Source: an uncultured Lachnospiraceae bacterium | GTDB taxonomy: Bacteria > Bacillota > Clostridia > Lachnospirales > Lachnospiraceae | DNA length: 64,000 bases | Direction: 5' to 3' | NCBI GenBank assembly: GCA_910577175.1 | Contig: CAJTLU010000013.1 | Span: 4,171 to 68,170 of the forward strand | Shown here: positions 2,899 to 12,755 of the stretch, piece by piece | How the letters are laid out: each line of letters opens with the position of its first letter | Numbering within the stretch: position 1 is the stretch's first letter | The notes under the pieces: generated by a model | The model's database searches: none | The model's input: the letters and a program-made list of their open reading frames with translations, nothing else | Told to the model about the DNA's origin: nothing | Translations under genes and position numbers: made by a program

Positions 2899-2932
2899 AT
2901 AATATTTGCTGCGATAGAGCAGCAAATATTAT
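2899..2932. promoter_or_regulatory. C-box-like operator: 14-bp perfect inverted repeat
   Basis: ataatatttgctgc-gataga-gcagcaaatattat. A third GCAGCA half-site sits at 2950-2955 inside the promoter spacer. Located just upstream of the HTH gene. Confidence 0.6.
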
Positions 2933-2939
2933 ATTTTTG

Positions 2940-2968
2940 TTGCATTTATGCAGCAGGTGTGCTATACT
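2940..2968 (+). promoter_or_regulatory. Sigma-A type promoter of the HTH-methylase operon
   Basis: -35 TTGCAT (2940-2945), 17-nt spacer, extended -10 TGcTATACT (2960-2968). Confidence 0.6.
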
Positions 2969-2989
2969 ATCCAAAATAGAGGTGATGAT

Positions 2990-3349
2990 ATGGCTAAAAC
3001 ACTTGGACAATATCTGAGGGCAATAAGGGAACAAAATAAATTAAGCACAAGAGACGTGGAAAAAGAGACCGGCATAACAACTTCACAATTAAGCCGCTTA
3101 GAATGCAGCCACACACGCAATCCGTCTCCCGTTGCTTTAAAAAAACTGGCTCTATTATATAACATAAAACTAATAGACTTGTTCCAAAAAGCAGGATATC
3201 TGGACTCCCAAGACGTAGATTCTTACATGGAATCCTGTTTCAAAGGCATTGAAAAATTAGACCAGGAAGACAAAAAACAAATACAGAATCAAATTGACTA
3301 TTTGATTTTTCAGCATGAAAAAGAAAGAGAGGACAGAAATGATTTATAG
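2990..3349 (+). CDS. XRE-family HTH regulator, probable controller (C) protein of the R-M island
   Basis: HTH_XRE signature LSTRDVEKETGITTSQLSRLE. SD agaggtga before ATG 2990. 3' end overlaps the methylase start. Confidence 0.8.
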   Translation: MAKTLGQYLRAIREQNKLSTRDVEKETGITTSQLSRLECSHTRNPSPVALKKLALLYNIKLIDLFQKAGYLDSQDVDSYMESCFKGIEKLDQEDKKQIQNQIDYLIFQHEKEREDRNDL

Positions 3350-4403
3350 ATTAGGAGAACTGTTCTGCGGCCCCGGCGGAATTGCGTGGGGAGCCCTTAA
3401 TGCCGATATCGGGGATGATAACTATAAAATTGTCCACCAATGGGCAAATGACTATGACAAAGACACCTGTGAAACATACCGGTATAACATCTGCAGCGAC
3501 AATCCAAAGAGCGTTTACCACAAAGACATCCGTGAATTTAACTTGGAAAATCTGCCAGAAATTGACGCCCTGGCTTTTGGATTCCCGTGCAATGATTACA
3601 GCGTAGTCGGAGAGCAGAAAGGCATGGACGGCGTCTTCGGCCCCCTCTATTCATATGGAGTAAAAGTATTAAATATATACAACCCTATATGGTTCGTTGC
3701 AGAAAATGTAGGCGGACTCCGAAATGCCAATGACGGAAAAGCCTTTACCAAAATCATTGACGAACTGAAAAAAGCAGGAACCCACGGCGGATATACTGTC
3801 GTCCCGCATTTATATAAATTTGAGGAATACGGAATCCCCCAGGCCCGCCACCGGATTATCATAGTAGGCATCCGGAAAGATATTGACGTTGCATACCATG
3901 TTCCTTCTCCGGAACCATATGCGGACATTGACAATACCTGCCGGAAAGCAATAGAAGACCCGCCCATCCCGACAGACGCCTTTAATAACGAACTGACAAA
4001 ACAGTCTAAAACCGTCATTGAAAGGCTGGACCATATCCTTCCCGGACAGAATGCATTTACTGCCGACCTGCCGGACGAACTGAAACTGAATGTCCACGGC
4101 GCGAAAATCAGCCAGATATACAAACGGCTGGACCCTGATAAACCTGCATACACCGTCACCGGAAGCGGCGGCGGCGGAACCCATATTTACCACTGGAAAG
4201 AATCCAGGGCCCTGACAAACCGGGAACGCGCCCGCCTGCAGACCTTCCCCGATACCTATAAATTTATCGGGAGCAAAGAAAGCGTCAGAAAACAGATCGG
4301 CATGGCCGTTCCATGCAAAGGGGCGAAAATCATATTTGAAGCCATCCTGAAAAGTTTCGCCGGCATCGAATACCCCAGCATTGAACCAAACATCAATGAA
4401 TGA
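3339..4403 (+). CDS. DNA (cytosine-5)-methyltransferase
   Basis: All C5-MTase motifs present: I ELFCGPGG, IV GFPCNDYS, VI AENVGGL, VIII QARHRIIIVG, IX RERARLQTFPD, X IGMAVP. SD agagagga before ATG 3339. Confidence 0.95.
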   Translation: MIYRLGELFCGPGGIAWGALNADIGDDNYKIVHQWANDYDKDTCETYRYNICSDNPKSVYHKDIREFNLENLPEIDALAFGFPCNDYSVVGEQKGMDGVFGPLYSYGVKVLNIYNPIWFVAENVGGLRNANDGKAFTKIIDELKKAGTHGGYTVVPHLYKFEEYGIPQARHRIIIVGIRKDIDVAYHVPSPEPYADIDNTCRKAIEDPPIPTDAFNNELTKQSKTVIERLDHILPGQNAFTADLPDELKLNVHGAKISQIYKRLDPDKPAYTVTGSGGGGTHIYHWKESRALTNRERARLQTFPDTYKFIGSKESVRKQIGMAVPCKGAKIIFEAILKSFAGIEYPSIEPNINE

Positions 4404-4410
4404 CCTTATA

Positions 4411-4440
4411 GTAAAACCGGAGCTTTAGCCCCGGTTTTAC
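4411..4440. terminator. Bidirectional hairpin terminator between convergent M and R operons
   Basis: 10-bp perfect stem gtaaaaccgg/ccggttttac with a 10-nt loop. Confidence 0.6.
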
Positions 4441-5396
4441 TACACAGAAAAATCCATATAATACTGCTCATCATCCAGCTTATAAAACGTAACATCTGTA
4501 CGTCCATATTCCTCCAGATCACTTCTCCAAATATAAGCGCCATTTGCCAGCCCCAGCCGGTTCCTGAAATACTCCCCAAGCTGTGCATTACTAAGCGGTG
4601 TAGTAATTGCCTTATTCCCCTGCTGTTCCACCCTCAATATCAGCTGATGGCCGTCATCCGTAACAACCGTAAAATGCTGTTTATTCAACGGGAAAAAGCC
4701 CGTCCGAACCATCGGCGCAGGAAGCGGTATGTACGCCTCATTCTTATTCCGCCTGCTTCTCTGCCCCCAGTTCAGCCCCGATTTCGTCCCCACTTCCCCG
4801 TTTTCCGAAAGCAGAGAAAGCGTAATTTTTTCTATATTTTCACCTGACAGACTGCCGACCGGCTTATTTTCCATATCCAAAACACTGTGCGTGGGATACA
4901 GCACCACATATTCCTCAACTTCGGCATGATTACAGAATATCGTATCATTCTCTACACTGCAGTAATACCGGTACGCTTCCAGGGCATCACACTCCACCAT
5001 ATATTCCCTGCGCTTTTCCCCAAATGCACTCTGCGTAAAATTTGCCGAACCTGCAAATGCTGCAACCGGCTCATCCCCTTTAAGCCAGACATACACTTTC
5101 GCATGTACCGGCGCAGAATCATACACATAACTGCACTGATAATGCGCCACCTCCTGGGGCATCTTCTCCTTCTGCAGCTCCTTAAATCCCTCATGGACAG
5201 CAATGCTGAGGCCGTCAAAAGGAACCATTCCCACAATCAAAGATATGTCTATAGGCCCGGATTTAAACTCCTTCAAATTCTTGATCAGCCACGAAGCCAT
5301 GTTCGGCGTTGCGTACCCTGATAAAATACACAGCCTGTCCGCCCCCGTGCGGAGCGGTTCAAACAATACCCTTCTCGCCAGTTCTGAATACTTCAT
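4440..5396 (-). CDS. PLD-family restriction endonuclease with C-terminal B3-like DNA-binding domain (NgoFVII/CglI R-protein type), copy 1
   Basis: Single HKD motif HAKVYVW...GSANFT. C-terminal FTVVTDDG...GNKAI...LGEYFRNRLGL...EEYGRTDVTF. Confidence 0.8.
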   Translation of the reverse strand: MKYSELARRVLFEPLRTGADRLCILSGYATPNMASWLIKNLKEFKSGPIDISLIVGMVPFDGLSIAVHEGFKELQKEKMPQEVAHYQCSYVYDSAPVHAKVYVWLKGDEPVAAFAGSANFTQSAFGEKRREYMVECDALEAYRYYCSVENDTIFCNHAEVEEYVVLYPTHSVLDMENKPVGSLSGENIEKITLSLLSENGEVGTKSGLNWGQRSRRNKNEAYIPLPAPMVRTGFFPLNKQHFTVVTDDGHQLILRVEQQGNKAITTPLSNAQLGEYFRNRLGLANGAYIWRSDLEEYGRTDVTFYKLDDEQYYMDFSV

Positions 5397-5425: not shown

Positions 5426-7279
5426 TTATTCACTGTCATCTGTTATATCATAATACACCATCTTATCCGGCAGTTTGATATTCGGAACCCAGATTTTCTC
5501 TCCGCCCCAGCCTTTTTCTCCTGTCATCTGATACATCGTAAGAACAATCTTGTCCGTGACAGATGCGCCTAACTGCCAGTCATTAGGAGACAGCAGCGCA
5601 CCCGTACCCTTCGCCACGTTCCTGTTCCTCCTGACAATCAGAACCCCCTGGCCTGCCGGTTTTTCAGCAAGCACCATATCAATAATAGAACGGAAAACAC
5701 TTACCTTAAAATCATCCTCCGACTTGATATGGGAAAAAACCTCCTGCATCAGACGAAGGCTCACCTGATAACACGGCTGTGAATCATCAAATGCCTCCAG
5801 AAGCCGGTCAATGTCAGCAATCGTATCGTTCTCCGGCGAATATGGATAATAATTTGTCCCCCCTGAAATCATGGCCAGCTTCTTATTATCCAGAACATTC
5901 TTCCTTGTCGGATTCAATCCCTCCGGATAATAAATCTTCACATCCGCAGTTCCCCTCTCCACCTGGGAAATAATAGAATTATTCGTTGCATTGATATCCG
6001 CAAACAGCTTATACAAATGCTCGTCAATAAACACCTTCATAAGCCCGGCATCCCTGTCATAGCCGAACATGCGGCTGTGCTGCCACATCGTATCTGCCTG
6101 CGGCTTCTTAGCCGTCCTGGTATAATAAATCGTCTGCAGCCCCGCAAAAGTAACACCCCGTCCAAGCGTATTCCCGCCGATAATCACATTAGAGCCCGAT
6201 GCATAATCATCACTGCCTACATCGGAACTTCCGTTCATGACCAGAACCTTAATTTCATCATTTTCCAGCAGTTTCTGTATAAAACCCAAAACCTCTCCAA
6301 ACGGCTTCTTCTCAAATTTAACCGGGTTCAGCTGCTCATACCACTGCCTGGCCTGCACAGTAAATCCGTCATCCCTGCACCTTTCCTTGAAATCCCCCAA
6401 AACCTTAAACACATCCTGCTGGTATTTTCCATGCACCGCCTTCCGAACACTGGGATGAATTAAAAAATTTGCCACCCCTTTTCCCGCTGTCAGCATGATA
6501 CCCGATACCACCAGATGATGCATTAACGCCTCTTCCAACGGATCTCTTAAAGAATCTATATAAGAAATACACTCCCCGGCTCCTTCCGCCGGAAAGAAAA
6601 AGTCTCCCCCAAGATACCCGTTTCCCGGCCGGAAATAATAAGCAAAATATGGGTGCCACCCTGATGACATTGTCTGCAGCAACAGCGCCTGCGGCGTCCC
6701 CGTAACCTGCAGATAAATACTGCACGCCGATCTCGCCTTAATATCATCCAGATACCTGTTGATAGAAGACCTGCTGTTTCTGTTGACCATCGTATTCAGA
6801 GAAGCCGCATCTGCCTCATCATCAATAATGAACAGTGGGTTCCCCCTCATAAACCCCGTAGAACCCAGAATATTAGACCACTGCTTCAAAGTCCTTACAT
6901 TCTTCTTTAACACAATAATGGCCGGCTGCATCAGACAGTTCTCTGCAAAAATCTCCGAATCATATTCGTCACATATACAGAATCCTTCCAAGTCCTCCCT
7001 CACCCGCTCAATGGTCTGCTGCTGCAGTATGACATTATCTGTTGTCAAAATCAAAAATACCGGAAAACCCAAATCCGCCGCCACAGAAATCACGCCGAAC
7101 ATCTGCCCTGTTTTTCCGGACTGCACATTTCCAAAGAGAAGCCCCACCTCATGCTCACAAAAAGAAAACCCTTCTAAATATTTCGGCGCGATATTATCCA
7201 CCGTTTCCTGGATAGAATCAGCTAACTGCTTATTCCCCCGCCCCTCTATCTTCTTCAAGTACGTTTCAAGATATTTCAT
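5426..7279 (-). CDS. Z1-domain P-loop ATPase (N-protein type of CglI/NgoAVII restriction enzymes)
   Basis: Walker A GNVQSGKTG, Walker B/DEAD-like FIIDDEADAAS, about 617 aa. Start set at ATG 7279 with SD ggaggcaga. Overlaps the upstream gene by 14 nt. Confidence 0.8.
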   Translation of the reverse strand: MKYLETYLKKIEGRGNKQLADSIQETVDNIAPKYLEGFSFCEHEVGLLFGNVQSGKTGQMFGVISVAADLGFPVFLILTTDNVILQQQTIERVREDLEGFCICDEYDSEIFAENCLMQPAIIVLKKNVRTLKQWSNILGSTGFMRGNPLFIIDDEADAASLNTMVNRNSRSSINRYLDDIKARSACSIYLQVTGTPQALLLQTMSSGWHPYFAYYFRPGNGYLGGDFFFPAEGAGECISYIDSLRDPLEEALMHHLVVSGIMLTAGKGVANFLIHPSVRKAVHGKYQQDVFKVLGDFKERCRDDGFTVQARQWYEQLNPVKFEKKPFGEVLGFIQKLLENDEIKVLVMNGSSDVGSDDYASGSNVIIGGNTLGRGVTFAGLQTIYYTRTAKKPQADTMWQHSRMFGYDRDAGLMKVFIDEHLYKLFADINATNNSIISQVERGTADVKIYYPEGLNPTRKNVLDNKKLAMISGGTNYYPYSPENDTIADIDRLLEAFDDSQPCYQVSLRLMQEVFSHIKSEDDFKVSVFRSIIDMVLAEKPAGQGVLIVRRNRNVAKGTGALLSPNDWQLGASVTDKIVLTMYQMTGEKGWGGEKIWVPNIKLPDKMVYYDITDDSE

Positions 7280-8414
7280 CTTCTGCCTCCTGCTGATGCC
7301 TGCTCTCCGGAAGGAAAGATAGCATCCATACTTCCAGCTCCGTACCATCCTCCGTCTTCGTCACAATATCTGTCTTTGTCAGCGTAATCGTATCCCGCCC
7401 GTATTTATTCAGCATCTTATGTGTAATAACACCTTTCCCACCCAGGTCACTTTCCACCCGATTCACCGGCTCCACCAGGCCGGCCGCTACAAGACGCCCC
7501 TTGATCCAGCGCCCCATAATCTTCAAATCGTCTTTTGAATACAAATTTTTGTTATTCTGCCCGCATGTCCAGGCCTGGAACTTCCAGCCGTCATCCGTAA
7601 CCGCCATAAAGGGTTGCTGATGCAGGGGATAGCCCGGCAGGTCCCTGATAGACTTACTAACCACCATTTCAATCTCCCACCAGACACGCTTTCTTCCGCT
7701 CGCATAGCAGACATTGATATTGGAACCCCTCATAGACTGATCATTCTCATCCTCCGGCACTTTCAACGGAAGCTCAAAGGAAACCTCCGTCATCCTCTTC
7801 TTATAAGCGTCCACCTCCTCCGGCGTAACCTTGGAAACAAATTCCTGATCCACCAGCGCCCGGTTGACCTCCCGAATCAATGGCACATCCCGCAGGTCAG
7901 CAATATTAGCCGAACACTTCGGAAGCATAATATCCCTGACATGGGCAGAAATCTCCTGCAGTTCCCCCGGTTCCTCCGTCACTGCTGACAATTCATACTG
8001 GCGCAGATTGGATGCCTCCAGCTTGACTGCTCCCAGATTATGCGAACCAACCACAGCAGAAAACGGCTTTCCATTCTTATAAAAAGCATACACTTTCCCA
8101 TGATATTTAAACGCCCTCACCAGACGCACTTCACCAATCCCGCGCCCGGTCCAGTCCTCATTCAAAGCCGCCGCTACATTATATGTACCCTCCGGCATAC
8201 CCTCATGATAATACATACCGATTGTCAGACAGACCCTCTTTATTCCAGCCTCGTCAACCAGCCCCTGCAGCTCTTTTAATGCCGCCTTCGACACATACCC
8301 CACTGCAATATCTATTTCATCCGCCTCACGCACAGCATCCATAAAATAATCTATAAAAGCTGTCTGCCCGTCTCCCAGCTTTAACGGGAGCATATTAGAA
8401 TATAATAACCGCAT
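7266..8414 (-). CDS. Second, divergent PLD-family nuclease with B3-like C-terminal domain, copy 2
   Basis: HKD motif YHGKVYAF...VGSHNLG. C-terminal FMAVTDDG...NNKNL...MGRWIKGRL...NKYGRDTITL is paralogous to the 4440-5396 product. Start set at ATG 8414 (SD ggagaaggg). Confidence 0.75.
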   Translation of the reverse strand: MRLLYSNMLPLKLGDGQTAFIDYFMDAVREADEIDIAVGYVSKAALKELQGLVDEAGIKRVCLTIGMYYHEGMPEGTYNVAAALNEDWTGRGIGEVRLVRAFKYHGKVYAFYKNGKPFSAVVGSHNLGAVKLEASNLRQYELSAVTEEPGELQEISAHVRDIMLPKCSANIADLRDVPLIREVNRALVDQEFVSKVTPEEVDAYKKRMTEVSFELPLKVPEDENDQSMRGSNINVCYASGRKRVWWEIEMVVSKSIRDLPGYPLHQQPFMAVTDDGWKFQAWTCGQNNKNLYSKDDLKIMGRWIKGRLVAAGLVEPVNRVESDLGGKGVITHKMLNKYGRDTITLTKTDIVTKTEDGTELEVWMLSFLPESRHQQEAEDEIS

Positions 8415-8477
8415 TTTCCCTTCTCCATTTTCATTAGTCACTGCAATTATAGCAGACATACCCGGCACTTTCTACCA

Positions 8478-8957
8478 TCACTCATCATCCACCCCATAAA
8501 ACGTCCTGTCTCCCTGCACGTTCAACTCAAAAATGCATTCTTCAATCACCCGGATACACTCCCCGCAGTTCTTTAAAATATCCTTTCCCCAAAACCGGAT
8601 CACTGTCCAGCCCATGAACATGAGAGCCTTATTCACCTCATCATCCCGCTCCATATTCCTCAATATCTTTTTCTTCCAATACTCCGGATTGTTTCCCGCC
8701 TCCAGACGCGGCTTCAAAACCTCCCAGTCCTTCCCATGAAAAAATTCACTATCACAAAAAATCGCTATCTTATACTTTGTCAGCGCAATATCCGGCTTAC
8801 CCGGCAGGGCGGCATAATTCTTCCTATACCGAAATCCCCTTGCCCACAGCTCTTTCCGCAGCATCACCTCAATGCTGGTATCACTGGACCTGATATTCCG
8901 CATATTCTTATGCCGCTGTTCCTTCGTAAGATTGTCCACTTCATCAGCCCCAAACAC
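8478..8957 (-). CDS. vsr: Very short patch repair endonuclease
   Basis: Classic Vsr block RSSDTSIEVMLRKELWARGFRYRKN...LPGKPDIAL...IAIFCDSEFFHG. Exact start uncertain (GTG 8957 or GTG 8939). Confidence 0.9.
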   Translation of the reverse strand: MFGADEVDNLTKEQRHKNMRNIRSSDTSIEVMLRKELWARGFRYRKNYAALPGKPDIALTKYKIAIFCDSEFFHGKDWEVLKPRLEAGNNPEYWKKKILRNMERDDEVNKALMFMGWTVIRFWGKDILKNCGECIRVIEECIFELNVQGDRTFYGVDDE

Positions 8958-8988: not shown

Positions 8989-9381
8989 CTATCCAAGATA
9001 CTCGATTTCAAGGCTGTTAGGAGAAGTAAAAGTCACCCTGACTTCCCCGCCTACTTGTGCGCCAACGCTTCTGTACCAATTACCTATGCCCTTTAGATTT
9101 CCTTCCTCCGCAAACTGCTTTGCATAAACATCCCCTGCACTGCTGCACCCCTGCGCAAGCAAAATACCAGAATAACGTCCATTTACAGCAACACAGCGGT
9201 ACCTGGGATTTGTTGTAGGATGATTGTCATTAAATATACCAAACCTCTCTGCATACTGCCGCGGTATCTTAATATAACCTTCCCCATAAATTGGATCACG
9301 GGTATTAGTATAGCGGTATGTACCCCACCCTAAATGGGACGGCTTCAAAGTAACTGTAAATGTGTCTCCTGCTCTTGGCAT
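8989..9381 (-). CDS. 130-aa stand-alone protein resembling the B3-like DNA-binding domain of the two PLD nucleases
   Basis: SD aagggggg. Blocks LGWGTYR...GEGYIKIPRQYAERFGIF...RVTF parallel GLNWGQR...EAYIPLP...GFFP...DVTF of the R-protein C-terminus. Eye alignment only. Confidence 0.45.
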   Translation of the reverse strand: MPRAGDTFTVTLKPSHLGWGTYRYTNTRDPIYGEGYIKIPRQYAERFGIFNDNHPTTNPRYRCVAVNGRYSGILLAQGCSSAGDVYAKQFAEEGNLKGIGNWYRSVGAQVGGEVRVTFTSPNSLEIEYLG

Positions 9382-9583
9382 AAAAATTCCCCCCTTGTAC
9401 TTTCAAAGTTTAATTTTTTCAACAGACCGTTTTCTTCTATAAATATTATCGGCTCGAAATCATGTTTTAAAAATCACATAATTATAAAAGTTCATGTCTT
9501 TTTACAGTTCTTCCCTTTTATTATACCACAAAAAGAAAATAATTGCTTCATCTTGCTAAAATTCTAAATGGTCCCTAAGTATT

Positions 9584-10037: not shown

Positions 10038-10730
10038 CTAATATAGTTTCGTAAAGGTCTTATAATGGTCGTCTGTGTAGTAAATCAGGCCGTCGTTGGA
10101 GTAGAGAATCCGTTCTGCACCGCGGTAGCCGCCACTATAGTTTACATCGCATTCATACCAGATGCGGCCCTTAGCCTCTGGCAGAAGTCCTTCGTAGTTG
10201 CCGAACCGGTTGCCGCCGATGGACATTTTGTCCGTAACGTCCCAAAGGTTTCCTTTTTCACTGTCCCAGCCAAGCTGTTCTGCCTCATTTTTGGTAATGT
10301 AATTGGAAGGCAGCTTATGGAAGTTATGGAGATAAGCTGCGACCAGCTCCGGGGAACTGTAAGTGCCGTCTTCCTTTACCAGCTCTTCTGGTGACTTTGA
10401 GGGTTCTGGCGTTGGCGTCTCTGTCGGCGCCGCCGTTACTGTAGAAGCGGGTGTGGTCAGTGCCTCTGTTGGCGCCTTCGTTGCCGTGGGGGCAGGCGGG
10501 GTCAGCGTATGTGCCGGGGCTTCTGTCGGTGCCGGAGTCACGGTATCGGAAGATGGGAGCTCCGGTCCTTTGTTCTCTGGCGCTTCTTCATCCAGCCCGA
10601 CCGCGAAAAGTCCGGAAAAAACCTGTTTCAGGTCTTTCCCGTTTGCCAGTGCAAGCACGACTGCAATCAGGAGAACAAGAATAGAAGCGCCAAGTCTTTT
10701 CTGCTTCTTTGTAAAAGTTGGTTTATTCAT
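10038..10730 (-). CDS. Secreted or membrane-anchored barnase-type guanyl-specific ribonuclease
   Basis: C-terminal 110 aa are collinear with barnase (HKLPSNYITKNEAEQLGW...GGNRF...RIWYECDVNY...RILYSNDGLIYYTDDHYKTFTKLY). N-terminal TM/signal and a Pro/Thr/Ala-rich linker. Confidence 0.9.
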   Translation of the reverse strand: MNKPTFTKKQKRLGASILVLLIAVVLALANGKDLKQVFSGLFAVGLDEEAPENKGPELPSSDTVTPAPTEAPAHTLTPPAPTATKAPTEALTTPASTVTAAPTETPTPEPSKSPEELVKEDGTYSSPELVAAYLHNFHKLPSNYITKNEAEQLGWDSEKGNLWDVTDKMSIGGNRFGNYEGLLPEAKGRIWYECDVNYSGGYRGAERILYSNDGLIYYTDDHYKTFTKLY

Positions 10731-10798
10731 TAAAATCCCTCCGTAATGTTCCTGAGATAATCATCTGATTGCTACAGTATAGCATGAAGAAGGGGAAC

Positions 10799-10827
10799 TT
10801 GTCAAAAGGAGCGGGACATAGTATAAT
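10799..10827 (+). promoter_or_regulatory. Promoter of the ABC exporter gene, followed by a structured leader
   Basis: -35 TTGTCA, 17-nt spacer, -10 TATAAT. An 11-bp perfect hairpin at 10831-10865 sits right at the predicted 5' end. Confidence 0.6.
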
Positions 10828-10988
10828 TGTCTGAGGAAGCGCTGATGAAATCACCGCTTCCTCAGAGCCTCCGGCGGATGCACACGGATTTGCCGCAGAA
10901 TCTGCTGCTTTGTAGCGCAAATCCGGTGCGGGAAACGCTTTCATCAACATTTCCCTAAAGAAAAACAAAGCCCCTGTAAAGGAGGAAT

Positions 10989-12755
10989 ATGGCATTGAAG
11001 AAACAGGAATATCCTACTGGGGAGCTGATATGGCGTTTCCTGCCGTATTTTAAGCCCCATACGAAGGTGCTGGTGTTAGATTTACTCTGCTCCGCGCTTT
11101 CTACCGGCTGCGAGCTGGTGCTTCCGCTGATTCTCCGGTATATTACGAATACCGGGATGACAGAGTTAGAAAAGCTGACGGTTTCGGTCATCGGAGGACT
11201 CGCAGGAATCTATCTGCTGCTTCGTGTGGTGGAATGTTTATGTAATTATTATCGTGCCTATATGGGACATGTCATGGGCGCCGAAATTGAAACAAGCATG
11301 CGGCGGGATGCGTATGCACATCTGCAGAGGCTTTCCATTACCTTTTTCAATAATACCAAGGTCGGACAGATTATGGGGCGGCTGACCAACGACCTGTTCG
11401 ATGTGACGGAGTTTGCCCATCACTGTCCGGAGGAGTTTTTCATTGCGGGCGTAAAAATCATCGTCTCCTTTGTGATTCTGCTTACGATTAACGTGCCGCT
11501 CACCCTTGTGATTTTTGCAATGCTCCCGGTGATGGCGTATGTCTGTATTAAATTAAACCGCAGGAACCGTGCGGCATTTGCAAAGCAGCGCCAGCAGATC
11601 GGCGAGCTGAATGCGGAGGTGGAGGACAGCCTGTTAGGGCAGCGGGTCGTAAAGGCATTTGCGAACGAGACGTTAGAGGAAGCGAAGTTTGCGGAGGGAA
11701 ATGAGCTGTTTCTGGACATCAAGCGGGAAACCTACCGCTATATGGCGGCATTCCATACAAGTACGAAGGTATTTGACGGATTGATGTACCTGGTCGTGAT
11801 TCTGATGGGCGGGGTGCTTCTGATTCGCGGCTACATAACACCGGGCGACCTGGTAGCATACACAATGTATGTTGGGACGCTGTTTGCGACAATCCGTACC
11901 ATTGTTGAGTTTGCGGAGCAATTCCAGCGGGGCATTACCGGAATCGAACGCTTTTTACAGCTTATGGATGCGGAGATTGATATTTTTGACGAGCCGGGTG
12001 CGGAGCCGCTTGAGAGGCCGGCAGGGAGCATTTCCTTTGAACATGTCTCCTTTGCTTATCCGGATGACAGCAACACGGTGTTCCACGATTTCAGCCTGGA
12101 GGTGGCGGCAGGCGAAAAGCTTGCGATTGTGGGACCCTCCGGCAGCGGGAAAACGACGTTCTGCCACCTGCTTCCGCGGTTTTATGAAATTGACAACGGG
12201 ACAATCCGGATTGACGGAAAGGATATCCGGGGCGTGACCTTAAAAAGCCTGCGGGACTGCATCGGGATTGTGCAGCAGGATGTATATCTGTTTTCCGGTA
12301 CGATTTTAGAAAATATTTTATACGGGAAACCGGGTGCGACGGAGGAAGAAGCGGTCGAGGCGGCGAAAAAGGCGGGAGCCCACGGCTTTATCCTGGAGCT
12401 CCCAGAAGGATACAGAAGCTATGTGGGGGAGCGGGGCGTAAAGCTTTCCGGCGGGCAGAAGCAGCGGATTAGTATTGCGAGGGTGTTTTTAAAGAATCCG
12501 CCGATTATGATTTTAGATGAGGCAACCTCGGCGTTAGATAACGAGAGCGAGTTTGAGGTGGCAAGGTCGCTGGAGGAGCTTACGGCAGGCAGGACGACGG
12601 TTACGATTGCGCACCGTCTGTCCACGATTCAGAACGCGGACCGTATTATTGTGCTGACGAAGGAAGGGATTTCCGAGGAGGGGACGCATCAGGCGTTAAT
12701 GGAGCAGAAGGGGCTGTACTATGAATACTTTACCATGTCGGAGCGGCTCCGGTAG
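10989..12755 (+). CDS. ABC exporter, fused permease/ATPase (MsbA/multidrug type)
   Basis: Six-TM N-terminal half. Walker A GPSGSGKTT, signature LSGGQKQR, Walker B ILDEATSALD. Confidence 0.9.
   Translation: MALKKQEYPTGELIWRFLPYFKPHTKVLVLDLLCSALSTGCELVLPLILRYITNTGMTELEKLTVSVIGGLAGIYLLLRVVECLCNYYRAYMGHVMGAEIETSMRRDAYAHLQRLSITFFNNTKVGQIMGRLTNDLFDVTEFAHHCPEEFFIAGVKIIVSFVILLTINVPLTLVIFAMLPVMAYVCIKLNRRNRAAFAKQRQQIGELNAEVEDSLLGQRVVKAFANETLEEAKFAEGNELFLDIKRETYRYMAAFHTSTKVFDGLMYLVVILMGGVLLIRGYITPGDLVAYTMYVGTLFATIRTIVEFAEQFQRGITGIERFLQLMDAEIDIFDEPGAEPLERPAGSISFEHVSFAYPDDSNTVFHDFSLEVAAGEKLAIVGPSGSGKTTFCHLLPRFYEIDNGTIRIDGKDIRGVTLKSLRDCIGIVQQDVYLFSGTILENILYGKPGATEEEAVEAAKKAGAHGFILELPEGYRSYVGERGVKLSGGQKQRISIARVFLKNPPIMILDEATSALDNESEFEVARSLEELTAGRTTVTIAHRLSTIQNADRIIVLTKEGISEEGTHQALMEQKGLYYEYFTMSERLR

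Follow-up and report, generated by a model that had tools for sequence, protein, structure and literature searches.

A stand-alone B3-like protein, predicted to bind DNA, follows one class of C5 methyltransferases through restriction-modification cassettes with different nucleases

We analyzed a 64,000-nucleotide stretch of an uncultured Lachnospiraceae genome (contig CAJTLU010000013.1, positions 4,171 to 68,170), hereafter the window, and studied a small gene at 8989-9381 whose product we call B3s. We found that B3s is a nuclease-less B3-like pseudobarrel homologous to the recognition domain of the nucleases in its own restriction-modification (R-M) cassette, that it is a real gene under purifying selection, and that it follows a class of C5 methyltransferases independent of the type of nuclease nearby. 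The core shared by the readings considered here, a nuclease-independent, methylase-linked DNA reader, is in our judgment rather likely. As for its role, our tentative preference, held at less than even confidence, is that B3s is a trans-acting reader of methylation state that controls the cassette, a non-helix-turn-helix (non-HTH) analogue or supplement of the C (controller) protein. The gene and its ribosome-binding signal lie as follows.

8989..9381, minus strand: B3s, a predicted stand-alone B3-like (NgoFVII_C-related) DNA-binding protein of 130 aa, 14.5 kDa and isoelectric point (pI) 8.9 (from the list of open reading frames (ORFs), family alignment, AlphaFold2/Foldseek, hhalign and dN/dS)
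9389..9396, minus strand: Shine-Dalgarno sequence AAGGGGGG, 7 nt ahead of the B3s start codon (read from the sequence)

The B3s ORF starts with ATG and stops 31 nt before the GTG start of vsr (8957), and no terminator-like site was found between the two genes. Nearly all B3s homologues (62 non-redundant) have a strong Shine-Dalgarno sequence at the correct spacing, and the ratio of nonsynonymous to synonymous substitution rates (dN/dS) is 0.05-0.23 against relatives at 78-95% protein identity. The original prediction, made from the letters of the window, had described a well-expressed-looking ORF just upstream of vsr, and this description holds. It had also called the gene an orphan, which it is not: an exhaustive hidden Markov model search of 1.84 billion representatives yielded 206 clusters at 50% identity, and the family counts 229 clusters at 90% identity. 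Every name given to a member by its source is “hypothetical protein.”

The AlphaFold2 model of B3s (predicted local distance difference test 87.4, predicted template-modelling (TM) score 0.83) has seven strands with interspersed helices. When this model was compared to the PDB with Foldseek, the top 25 matches were all B3 or B3-like (probability 0.93-1.00, TM 0.45-0.60), including ARF, RAV1, LEC2, FUS3, TEM1, VRN1, At1g16640, LlaJI.R1-N and BfiI-C; unrelated folds begin only at E ~1 or worse. The predicted structure is therefore the B3-type pseudobarrel that had been proposed for this protein. The B3-like domain fills all 130 aa, and domain searches found no nuclease domain (no RE_NgoFVII, PLDc or PADLOC match), again as first described. 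NCBIfam and PADLOC gave no match for B3s, and no HTH family matched it.

At the sequence level, the relationship to the two nucleases of the cassette, R1 and R2, emerges from profiles. Pairwise BLASTP of B3s against R1 and R2 gave nothing significant (E 14 for the C-terminal domain of R1 at 4440-5396), and the match of B3s to Pfam RE_NgoFVII_C (PF20731) scores 15.7 bits (E 0.016), below the gathering cut-off of 23.8. The same Pfam family is matched by 28 of 36 B3s homologues (best E 2.9e-6); the relative P0248 exceeds the cut-off at 24.0 bits, and a single precomputed PF20731 match exists, on P0119. Alignment of the B3s family with the pooled C-terminal domains of R1 and R2 in hhalign gave a probability of 83% and E 9.3e-6 over 125 columns. 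The pooled R1+R2 profile is needed for a convincing match, since single sequences (E 0.013-0.11) and a single sub-family (probability 21-30%) align weakly. The likeness to the R1 C-terminal domain first noticed by eye thus stands at the profile level but not in plain BLASTP. The only sequence in the PDB matched by the family profile is the B3 domain of R.NgoAVII.

Conservation in the family centers on the parts of this domain that touch DNA. There are 15 invariant alignment columns, 12 of which fall within residues 19-36 and 78-90, and these two stretches align with the DNA-gripping N-arm and C-arm of R.NgoAVII, as delimited in the DNA structure in which the arms grip the major groove (PMC4267654). 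Specifically, W19, G20, R23, R28, G33, E34 and Y36 are invariant in the N-arm and G78, A87, K88, Q89 and F90 in the C-arm, with A44, N53 and L96 outside the arms. The B3s C-arm, QGCSSAGDVYAKQF..NLKGIGNWY, aligns with that of R.NgoAVII, and the likeness between QGCSSAGDVYAKQFAEEGNLKGIGNWY and its R.NgoAVII counterpart is striking: K88 pairs with K282 and F90 with F284 (R.NgoAVII residues were counted on chain 4rct_A, which has a 20-residue tag; the count is consistent with the published K212, K275 and R285). E34 aligns with the acidic residue 241 of the R.NgoAVII N-arm. The stretch of the model with the lowest confidence, residues 21-30, is the N-arm tip, which is mobile in R.NgoAVII (PMC4267654).

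One arm position bears on the presumed target. In R.NgoAVII the asymmetry of GCCGC is set by R285, through its bidentate contact with the central G (PMC4267654); the B3s family has a variable A, S or G there. Because this central-base arginine is not conserved, a GCNGC core target is suggested, and B3s probably binds DNA sequence-specifically, recognising a core of the GCNGC type whatever its middle base pair. Given the conserved arms and the mildly basic pI, we predict with good confidence that it binds DNA site-specifically, as a recognition domain freed from its nuclease and directed at the methyltransferase target. Bsp6I, a representative of one nuclease family found beside B3s, recognises GCNGC. 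M.CglI and M.NgoAVII target GCSGC and BceSIV targets GCWGC (PMC4267653), and GCNGC-, GCSGC- and GCWGC-class methyltransferases are abundant in Terrabacteria (PMC11347163). The database names of the methyltransferases next to B3s were all generic, with no specificity readable from them. The host genome contains ~22,800 GCNGC sites, with observed/expected ratios of 0.90 for GCWGC and 1.11 for GCSGC; we found no target avoidance in this genome, a result that is uninformative for inferring the target.

To describe the neighborhood of the family, we used 47 well-flanked, non-redundant genome loci, in which each side of B3s has no less than 4 kb of sequence. A C5 methyltransferase (Dcm) was present within 8 kb in 45 of these 47 loci and within 3 kb in 39, while a Vsr T:G mismatch endonuclease was present within 8 kb in 28 and missing from 19. 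Most neighboring methyltransferases are 54-100% identical over their full length to the methyltransferase of the window (M), and a minority form a second clade that accompanies Bsp6I-family nucleases. The nucleases themselves vary, with at least five architectures: CglI-type PLD-B3 enzymes with a Z1 helicase, type IIS enzymes with a FokI cleavage domain, Bsp6I-family enzymes (RE_Bsp6I), PDDEXK_5 and other B3-domain proteins. Among 401 genomes of the same order, 5 carried B3s, 15 the M clade and 4 both (Fisher p 6e-6). Hosts are mainly Bacillota, with further members in Sulfurimonas, Psychromonas, Acinetobacter, Bacteroidota, Fusobacteriaceae and Desulfuromonas. The only clear exceptions, without a methyltransferase or nuclease within 8 kb of B3s, are L040 (Psychromonas aquimarina) and L071 (Kordia sp.), and one of these two B3s genes adjoins a 1257-aa STAND NTPase. 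Five B3s cassettes (L004, L039, L041, L048 and L060) lie in defence islands beside Gabija-like OLD/UvrD, McrBC, GmrSD and a UvrD-HSDR_N-S24 fusion.

The island that holds B3s in the window is an ATP-dependent R-M cassette of the CglI/NgoAVII type (PMC4267653, PMC4267654) with extra parts. Its other features are listed here.

8478..8957, minus strand: Vsr T:G mismatch endonuclease (Pfam Vsr E 6e-29; TIGR00632 E 3.5e-37)
7266..8468, minus strand: R2, PLD + B3 nuclease of 400 aa with the HGK motif present (Pfam RE_NgoFVII and RE_NgoFVII_C; PDB 4rct E 4.9e-42)
5426..7348, minus strand: N/H subunit, the DEAD-Z1 helicase-like ATPase of CglI/NgoAVII-type enzymes (Pfam Z1 E 2e-25; PADLOC Helicase_II E 7e-253)
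4440..5396, minus strand: R1, second PLD + B3 nuclease, 318 aa (Pfam E 8e-51 and 3e-44; PDB 4rct E 0.0012)
3315..4403, plus strand: M, C5 cytosine methyltransferase (Pfam DNA_methylase E 2e-67)
2948..3349, plus strand: HTH (Xre-type) controller-like protein, overlapping the start of M (Pfam HTH_19, HTH_3)
2908..2954, no strand assigned: operator-like layout in the HTH-M promoter, GCTGC-N6-GCAGC (2908, 2919) plus GCAGC (2950) in the -35/-10 spacer (site list)
9460..9489, minus strand: ~30 nt left over from the 3' end of an HNH_2 nuclease gene (blastn of the upstream region against loci L012-L016)
9520..9528, minus strand: candidate extended -10 (TGgTATAAT) for the B3s-vsr-R2-N-R1 operon, proposed from the letters alone

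The HTH and M genes (2948-4403, plus strand) converge on the minus-strand B3s-vsr-R2-N-R1 operon. R2 is a close relative of R.NgoAVII (4rct E 5e-42) and R1 a distant one (E 0.0012), with the HxK motif kept in both; the two may read different subsets, GCSGC and GCWGC, of the target of the single methylase. No PtuA or PtuB was found in the window cassette.

Upstream of B3s, the closest relatives of the window (L011-L016) carry a gene for an HNH_2 nuclease (260 aa; assigned in L013:288-1070 by Pfam at E 9e-13) that directly precedes B3s and is missing from the window. Homology to the closest cassettes (L012-L016) ends at 9489, inside the last 30 nt of the HNH_2 gene, and 9489 is one boundary of the cassette. 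The candidate extended -10 falls outside the portion common to the relatives, and a promoter consensus scan gave a different candidate, CTGACC-17-TAGAAT at 9589-9561. No GCNGC site was found upstream of B3s in 9382-9560.

We next asked how regularly B3s is carried, using an M-selected set of 80 metagenomic cassettes that were picked only by similarity to the window M and are all of the CglI/BceSIV type. B3s was present in ~22 of the 80 and, among complete cassettes, in 14 of 46 plus one fusion. The gene order M <- Vsr <- R1 <- N <- R2 occurs both with and without B3s between M and Vsr, and within this M clade B3s is missing from ~70% of the cassettes that are otherwise syntenic (~30% have it). 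The original prediction had raised the possibility of a built-in antitoxin. It had also named absence from syntenic loci of relatives as a refuting observation, and since B3s is absent from so many otherwise syntenic cassettes, an indispensable antitoxin is unlikely.

Nor is the position of B3s fixed. We found four arrangements: at the head of the nuclease operon, as in the window; at the operon end after Vsr; directly upstream of M; and divergent from R2. About half of the loci have B3s in first place or immediately before M; in the others it comes last or stands apart, and it is often monocistronic with its own terminator. The original statement that it is the first gene of the nuclease operon is correct for the window but not for many other loci, and even in the window the first place is a secondary state that followed the loss of the upstream HNH_2 gene. 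A dependence of B3s on Vsr, HNH_2 or R1 was considered and is not supported, as no exclusive co-occurrence was found.

How might a protein of this kind act? Having no catalytic domain, B3s would act in trans at the DNA level. In the reading that we tentatively prefer, B3s would bind the methylation target of the cassette, the GCNGC core suggested by the conserved arms. Within the window, the three GCWGC of the HTH-M promoter (2908, 2919, 2950) are examples of sites to which it could bind, and its occupancy would tune the expression of methylase and nucleases, or the access of the nucleases, according to the methylation state of those sites.

Cassettes that bear the HTH gene have GCTGC-N6/7-GCAGC ~20 nt upstream of the -35 in the HTH-M promoter and a third GCWGC in the -35/-10 spacer, a layout seen in more than 20 cassettes whether B3s is present or not (including L014, L015, L019, L034, L050, L053, L055, L058, L061, L063, L066-68, L076, L081 and L082). 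Between cassettes, only the GCWGC pentamers of the layout are invariant, so the operator half-site would be identical to the presumed target of methylation, suggesting control by a switch that is sensitive to methylation.

B3s also tends to appear where an HTH controller is missing. The HTH gene has been lost, with its last ~30 nt remaining, in L119, L158, L166, L174-L178 and L185, and in these cassettes B3s immediately precedes M and forms a separate unit, closed by a terminator of its own, while the M promoter retains GCWGC sites flanking the -35; the sister cassettes L163 and L164 have the HTH gene and no B3s. Across the M-selected set, B3s was present in 8 of 9 cassettes without an HTH gene upstream of M (where it lies directly upstream of M) compared to 12 of 63 with one (p 8e-5), and HTH regulators are fewer in B3s-bearing cassettes (Mann-Whitney p 0.01), neither value being corrected for shared ancestry. 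Furthermore, many related cassettes carry a second small HTH gene directly before the R2-N-R1 operon, the spot that B3s occupies in the window. These second HTH genes were seen in L118, L123, L135, L136, L142, L144, L146, L152, L153, L168 and L170, and the window has no HTH gene there.

Several observations weigh against control of the cassette by B3s. We found no conserved operator, repeat or GCNGC upstream of B3s in the window, nor upstream of its homologues at 62 non-redundant loci. The GCTGC-N6-GCAGC layout is equally frequent in cassettes without B3s, so it is primarily an operator of the HTH protein or the methylase. Cassettes of the FokI, Bsp6I and PDDEXK_5 types that lack the HTH gene have no GCNGC in the spacer between B3s and M, and the complementarity of HTH and B3s stems from few independent lineages. 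The same domain is fused to Septu PtuA, which points to targeting and not to transcription. Finally, the sequence similarity of B3s to NgoFVII_C is weak and below the Pfam cut-off.

Two narrower proposals were set aside. Autoregulation through target sites upstream of B3s was rejected, as the 62 homologous loci show no enrichment of such sites. Nothing specific supports the idea that B3s reads the GCTGC-N6-GCAGC palindrome, which is equally conserved in cassettes without B3s. Upstream regions of the R2 operon likewise showed no GCNGC pattern separating B3s-bearing from B3s-less cassettes.

The fusions open a broader possibility, which we consider somewhat unlikely: that B3s is a portable reader of the methylation target, plugged by evolution into different effectors. 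As a free protein it would replace or supplement the HTH controller and sense GCNGC-class methylation; a Tudor-tailed form would be tethered to RNA polymerase; and fused to PtuA it would form a methylation-gated Septu restriction enzyme. Relatives of 224-239 aa (P0243, P0248 and P0267; for example L095:1553-2227) have a C-terminal extension that matches the C-terminal Tudor domain of UvrD/PcrA (PDB profile search, 7egt_B E 1.2e-4; six of seven matches are UvrD/PcrA C-terminal domains). In those helicases, this Tudor domain binds RNA polymerase. The P0248 gene, carried by a small mobile element, comes right behind a FokI-type nuclease, the usual B3s spot in cassettes of the FokI type. The PtuA fusions (638-643 aa) occur at L096:3584-6083, in L097 and L098, and in L137 and L140 around 10251-12182, and the pair of B3s-PtuA and PtuB looks like a methylation-gated variant of Septu.

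The same fusions bear on a specificity or loading factor, as the original prediction had also considered. Here B3s would be a portable subunit that reads unmethylated sites and there recruits, or licenses, either a motor or a nuclease without a reader of its own (the Z1 N subunit, HNH_2 or PtuAB-like proteins), adding a target-reading arm. We regard this role as unlikely, though it gains some support from two kinds of loci. First, some PtuA proteins carry the B3s domain as an in-frame N-terminal fusion (PADLOC PtuA E 3e-116) and are followed by the PtuB HNH protein, and such pairs lie inside HTH-M-R cassettes, occupying the place of R1 in L137 and L140. Second, a Priestia plasmid has B3s immediately ahead of a Z1 protein (890 aa) and a DUF4420 PD-(D/E)XK nuclease, neither with a recognisable B3 domain. 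This locus (L184, Priestia aryabhattai plasmid NZ_CP024036.1, 86591-100980) continues with a 169-aa ORF, an AlwI/FokI-type nuclease and Dcm. The HNH_2 nuclease gene that immediately precedes B3s in the window's closest relatives would fit as well. However, most B3s loci hold only nucleases with their own recognition domain (FokI-type, Bsp6I, PLD-B3), and HNH_2 and B3s are each found without the other. Conservation is centered on the DNA arms, with no obvious second conserved surface for protein contacts in the alignment, and we saw no stand-alone PtuA beside a stand-alone B3s.

We find it decidedly doubtful that free B3s is a competitive shield, transiently covering unmethylated sites and so softening self-restriction at establishment or after methylation loss. 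A protein with conserved DNA arms and no catalytic domain would be suited to this, it would serve with any nuclease type and so match the nuclease-independent distribution, and in the window it is the first cistron with a strong Shine-Dalgarno sequence. Yet the gene is optional, being absent from most syntenic cassettes, and many loci transcribe it behind the nucleases or on its own. With ~22,800 GCNGC sites in the host genome, stoichiometric shielding would be costly, and site occupancy would block the methylase too. Nor is B3s ever alone on phages, where an anti-restriction gene would be expected by itself: across mobile-element collections we found it in 1 of 50,697 phage records, 5 IMG/VR contigs and 1 plasmid, in each case near a C5 methyltransferase gene, along with nuclease genes. 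B3s is no acidic DNA mimic either, given its pI (family median 7.8). The competitor or establishment-delay role originally proposed thus found no specific support. A phage anti-restriction gene or acidic DNA mimic was rejected on the same two grounds, the methyltransferase beside the viral and plasmid copies and the pI of 8.9.

Very unlikely, finally, is an accessory role in very-short-patch repair, in which B3s would mark the methylation target or the T:G deamination product and help Vsr: the two genes are co-directional and closely spaced in the window, vsr is the downstream same-strand neighbor in 13 loci of the genome-contig set and the upstream one in 10 (7 same strand, 3 divergent), Vsr occurs in 19 of 19 evaluable B3s-bearing M-selected cassettes, and both genes are optional add-ons tied to the methylase and not the nuclease, but 19 of the 47 well-flanked B3s loci lack vsr within 8 kb, ~28 of 34 cassettes without B3s have Vsr as well, the fusions are to PtuA and a Tudor domain and never to Vsr, and Vsr enzymes such as that of E. 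coli recognise their context unaided.

Whichever role B3s plays, what is new is that a recognition module known from nucleases circulates as a separate, selected gene, and that it stays with one class of cytosine methyltransferases while the surrounding nucleases are swapped. Our full-text literature search found no description of a free-standing bacterial B3-like protein or of such an R-M accessory gene, and the bacterial B3-like domains named in a structural paper of 2018 (PMC5934628) all belong to restriction endonucleases, as does each one whose structure has been solved. If B3s reads the methylation target in trans, as in the reading we prefer, it would be a new kind of R-M accessory or controller protein, and would show how islands with one methylase and many nucleases are coordinated; a small reader domain would also make unrelated effectors (Septu PtuAB, Z1 + PD-(D/E)XK) methylation-sensitive. 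Should it be a portable reader, R-M controllers or sensors would include a new class that has no HTH, and generic defence nucleases would gain self/non-self discrimination from the resident methyltransferase. On the practical side, a predicted 14-kDa single-domain binder, probably specific for GCNGC, would be an easy target for electrophoretic mobility shift assays and crystallography and a possible tool protein.

Among known systems, the closest is the C-terminal B3-like domain of R.NgoAVII and R.CglI (PF20731; PDB 4rd5, 4rdm), which shares with B3s the fold class, profile-level homology, the kind of cassette and two motifs (N-arm WG...E.YI.(I/L)P, C-arm GD.Y.K.F...L K.(I/L)G.W). B3s differs from it in being free-standing, without the PLD nuclease domain or linker, and in also accompanying nucleases unrelated to NgoAVII; compared to R.NgoAVII, its N-arm is much shorter and the R285 equivalent is not conserved. 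EcoRII-N, BfiI-C, UbaLAI-N and LlaJI.R1-N are likewise DNA-binding pseudobarrels (Foldseek 3zi5, 2c1l, 6c5d), and the general role that B3s would share with them is that of a site-reading module of restriction enzymes; they are domains of larger nucleases, whereas B3s is a separate polypeptide. With Septu PtuA/PtuB the link is through those family members that form the N-terminal domain of the PtuA ATPase, with the PtuB HNH gene next to them; B3s of the window has no ATPase part. The best structural matches are plant B3 transcription factors (ARF, RAV1, LEC2, FUS3, VAL1, TEM1; TM 0.5-0.68 on the target), which are sequence-specific, non-catalytic DNA readers, as B3s is predicted to be, though identity is only 10-17% and the plant proteins are eukaryotic, multi-domain and from an unrelated biological context. 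Finally, compared to the C proteins of type II R-M systems, B3s has a B3 pseudobarrel in place of a helix-turn-helix, no C-box-like operator upstream of its gene and no fixed position in the cassette, and the window cassette has a separate HTH protein (2948-3349). Like C proteins, however, B3s is a small, optional R-M accessory with predicted DNA binding, it is often first in the nuclease or methylase operon, though last or separate in about as many loci, and in the few independent lineages concerned it tends to occur where the HTH controller is missing.

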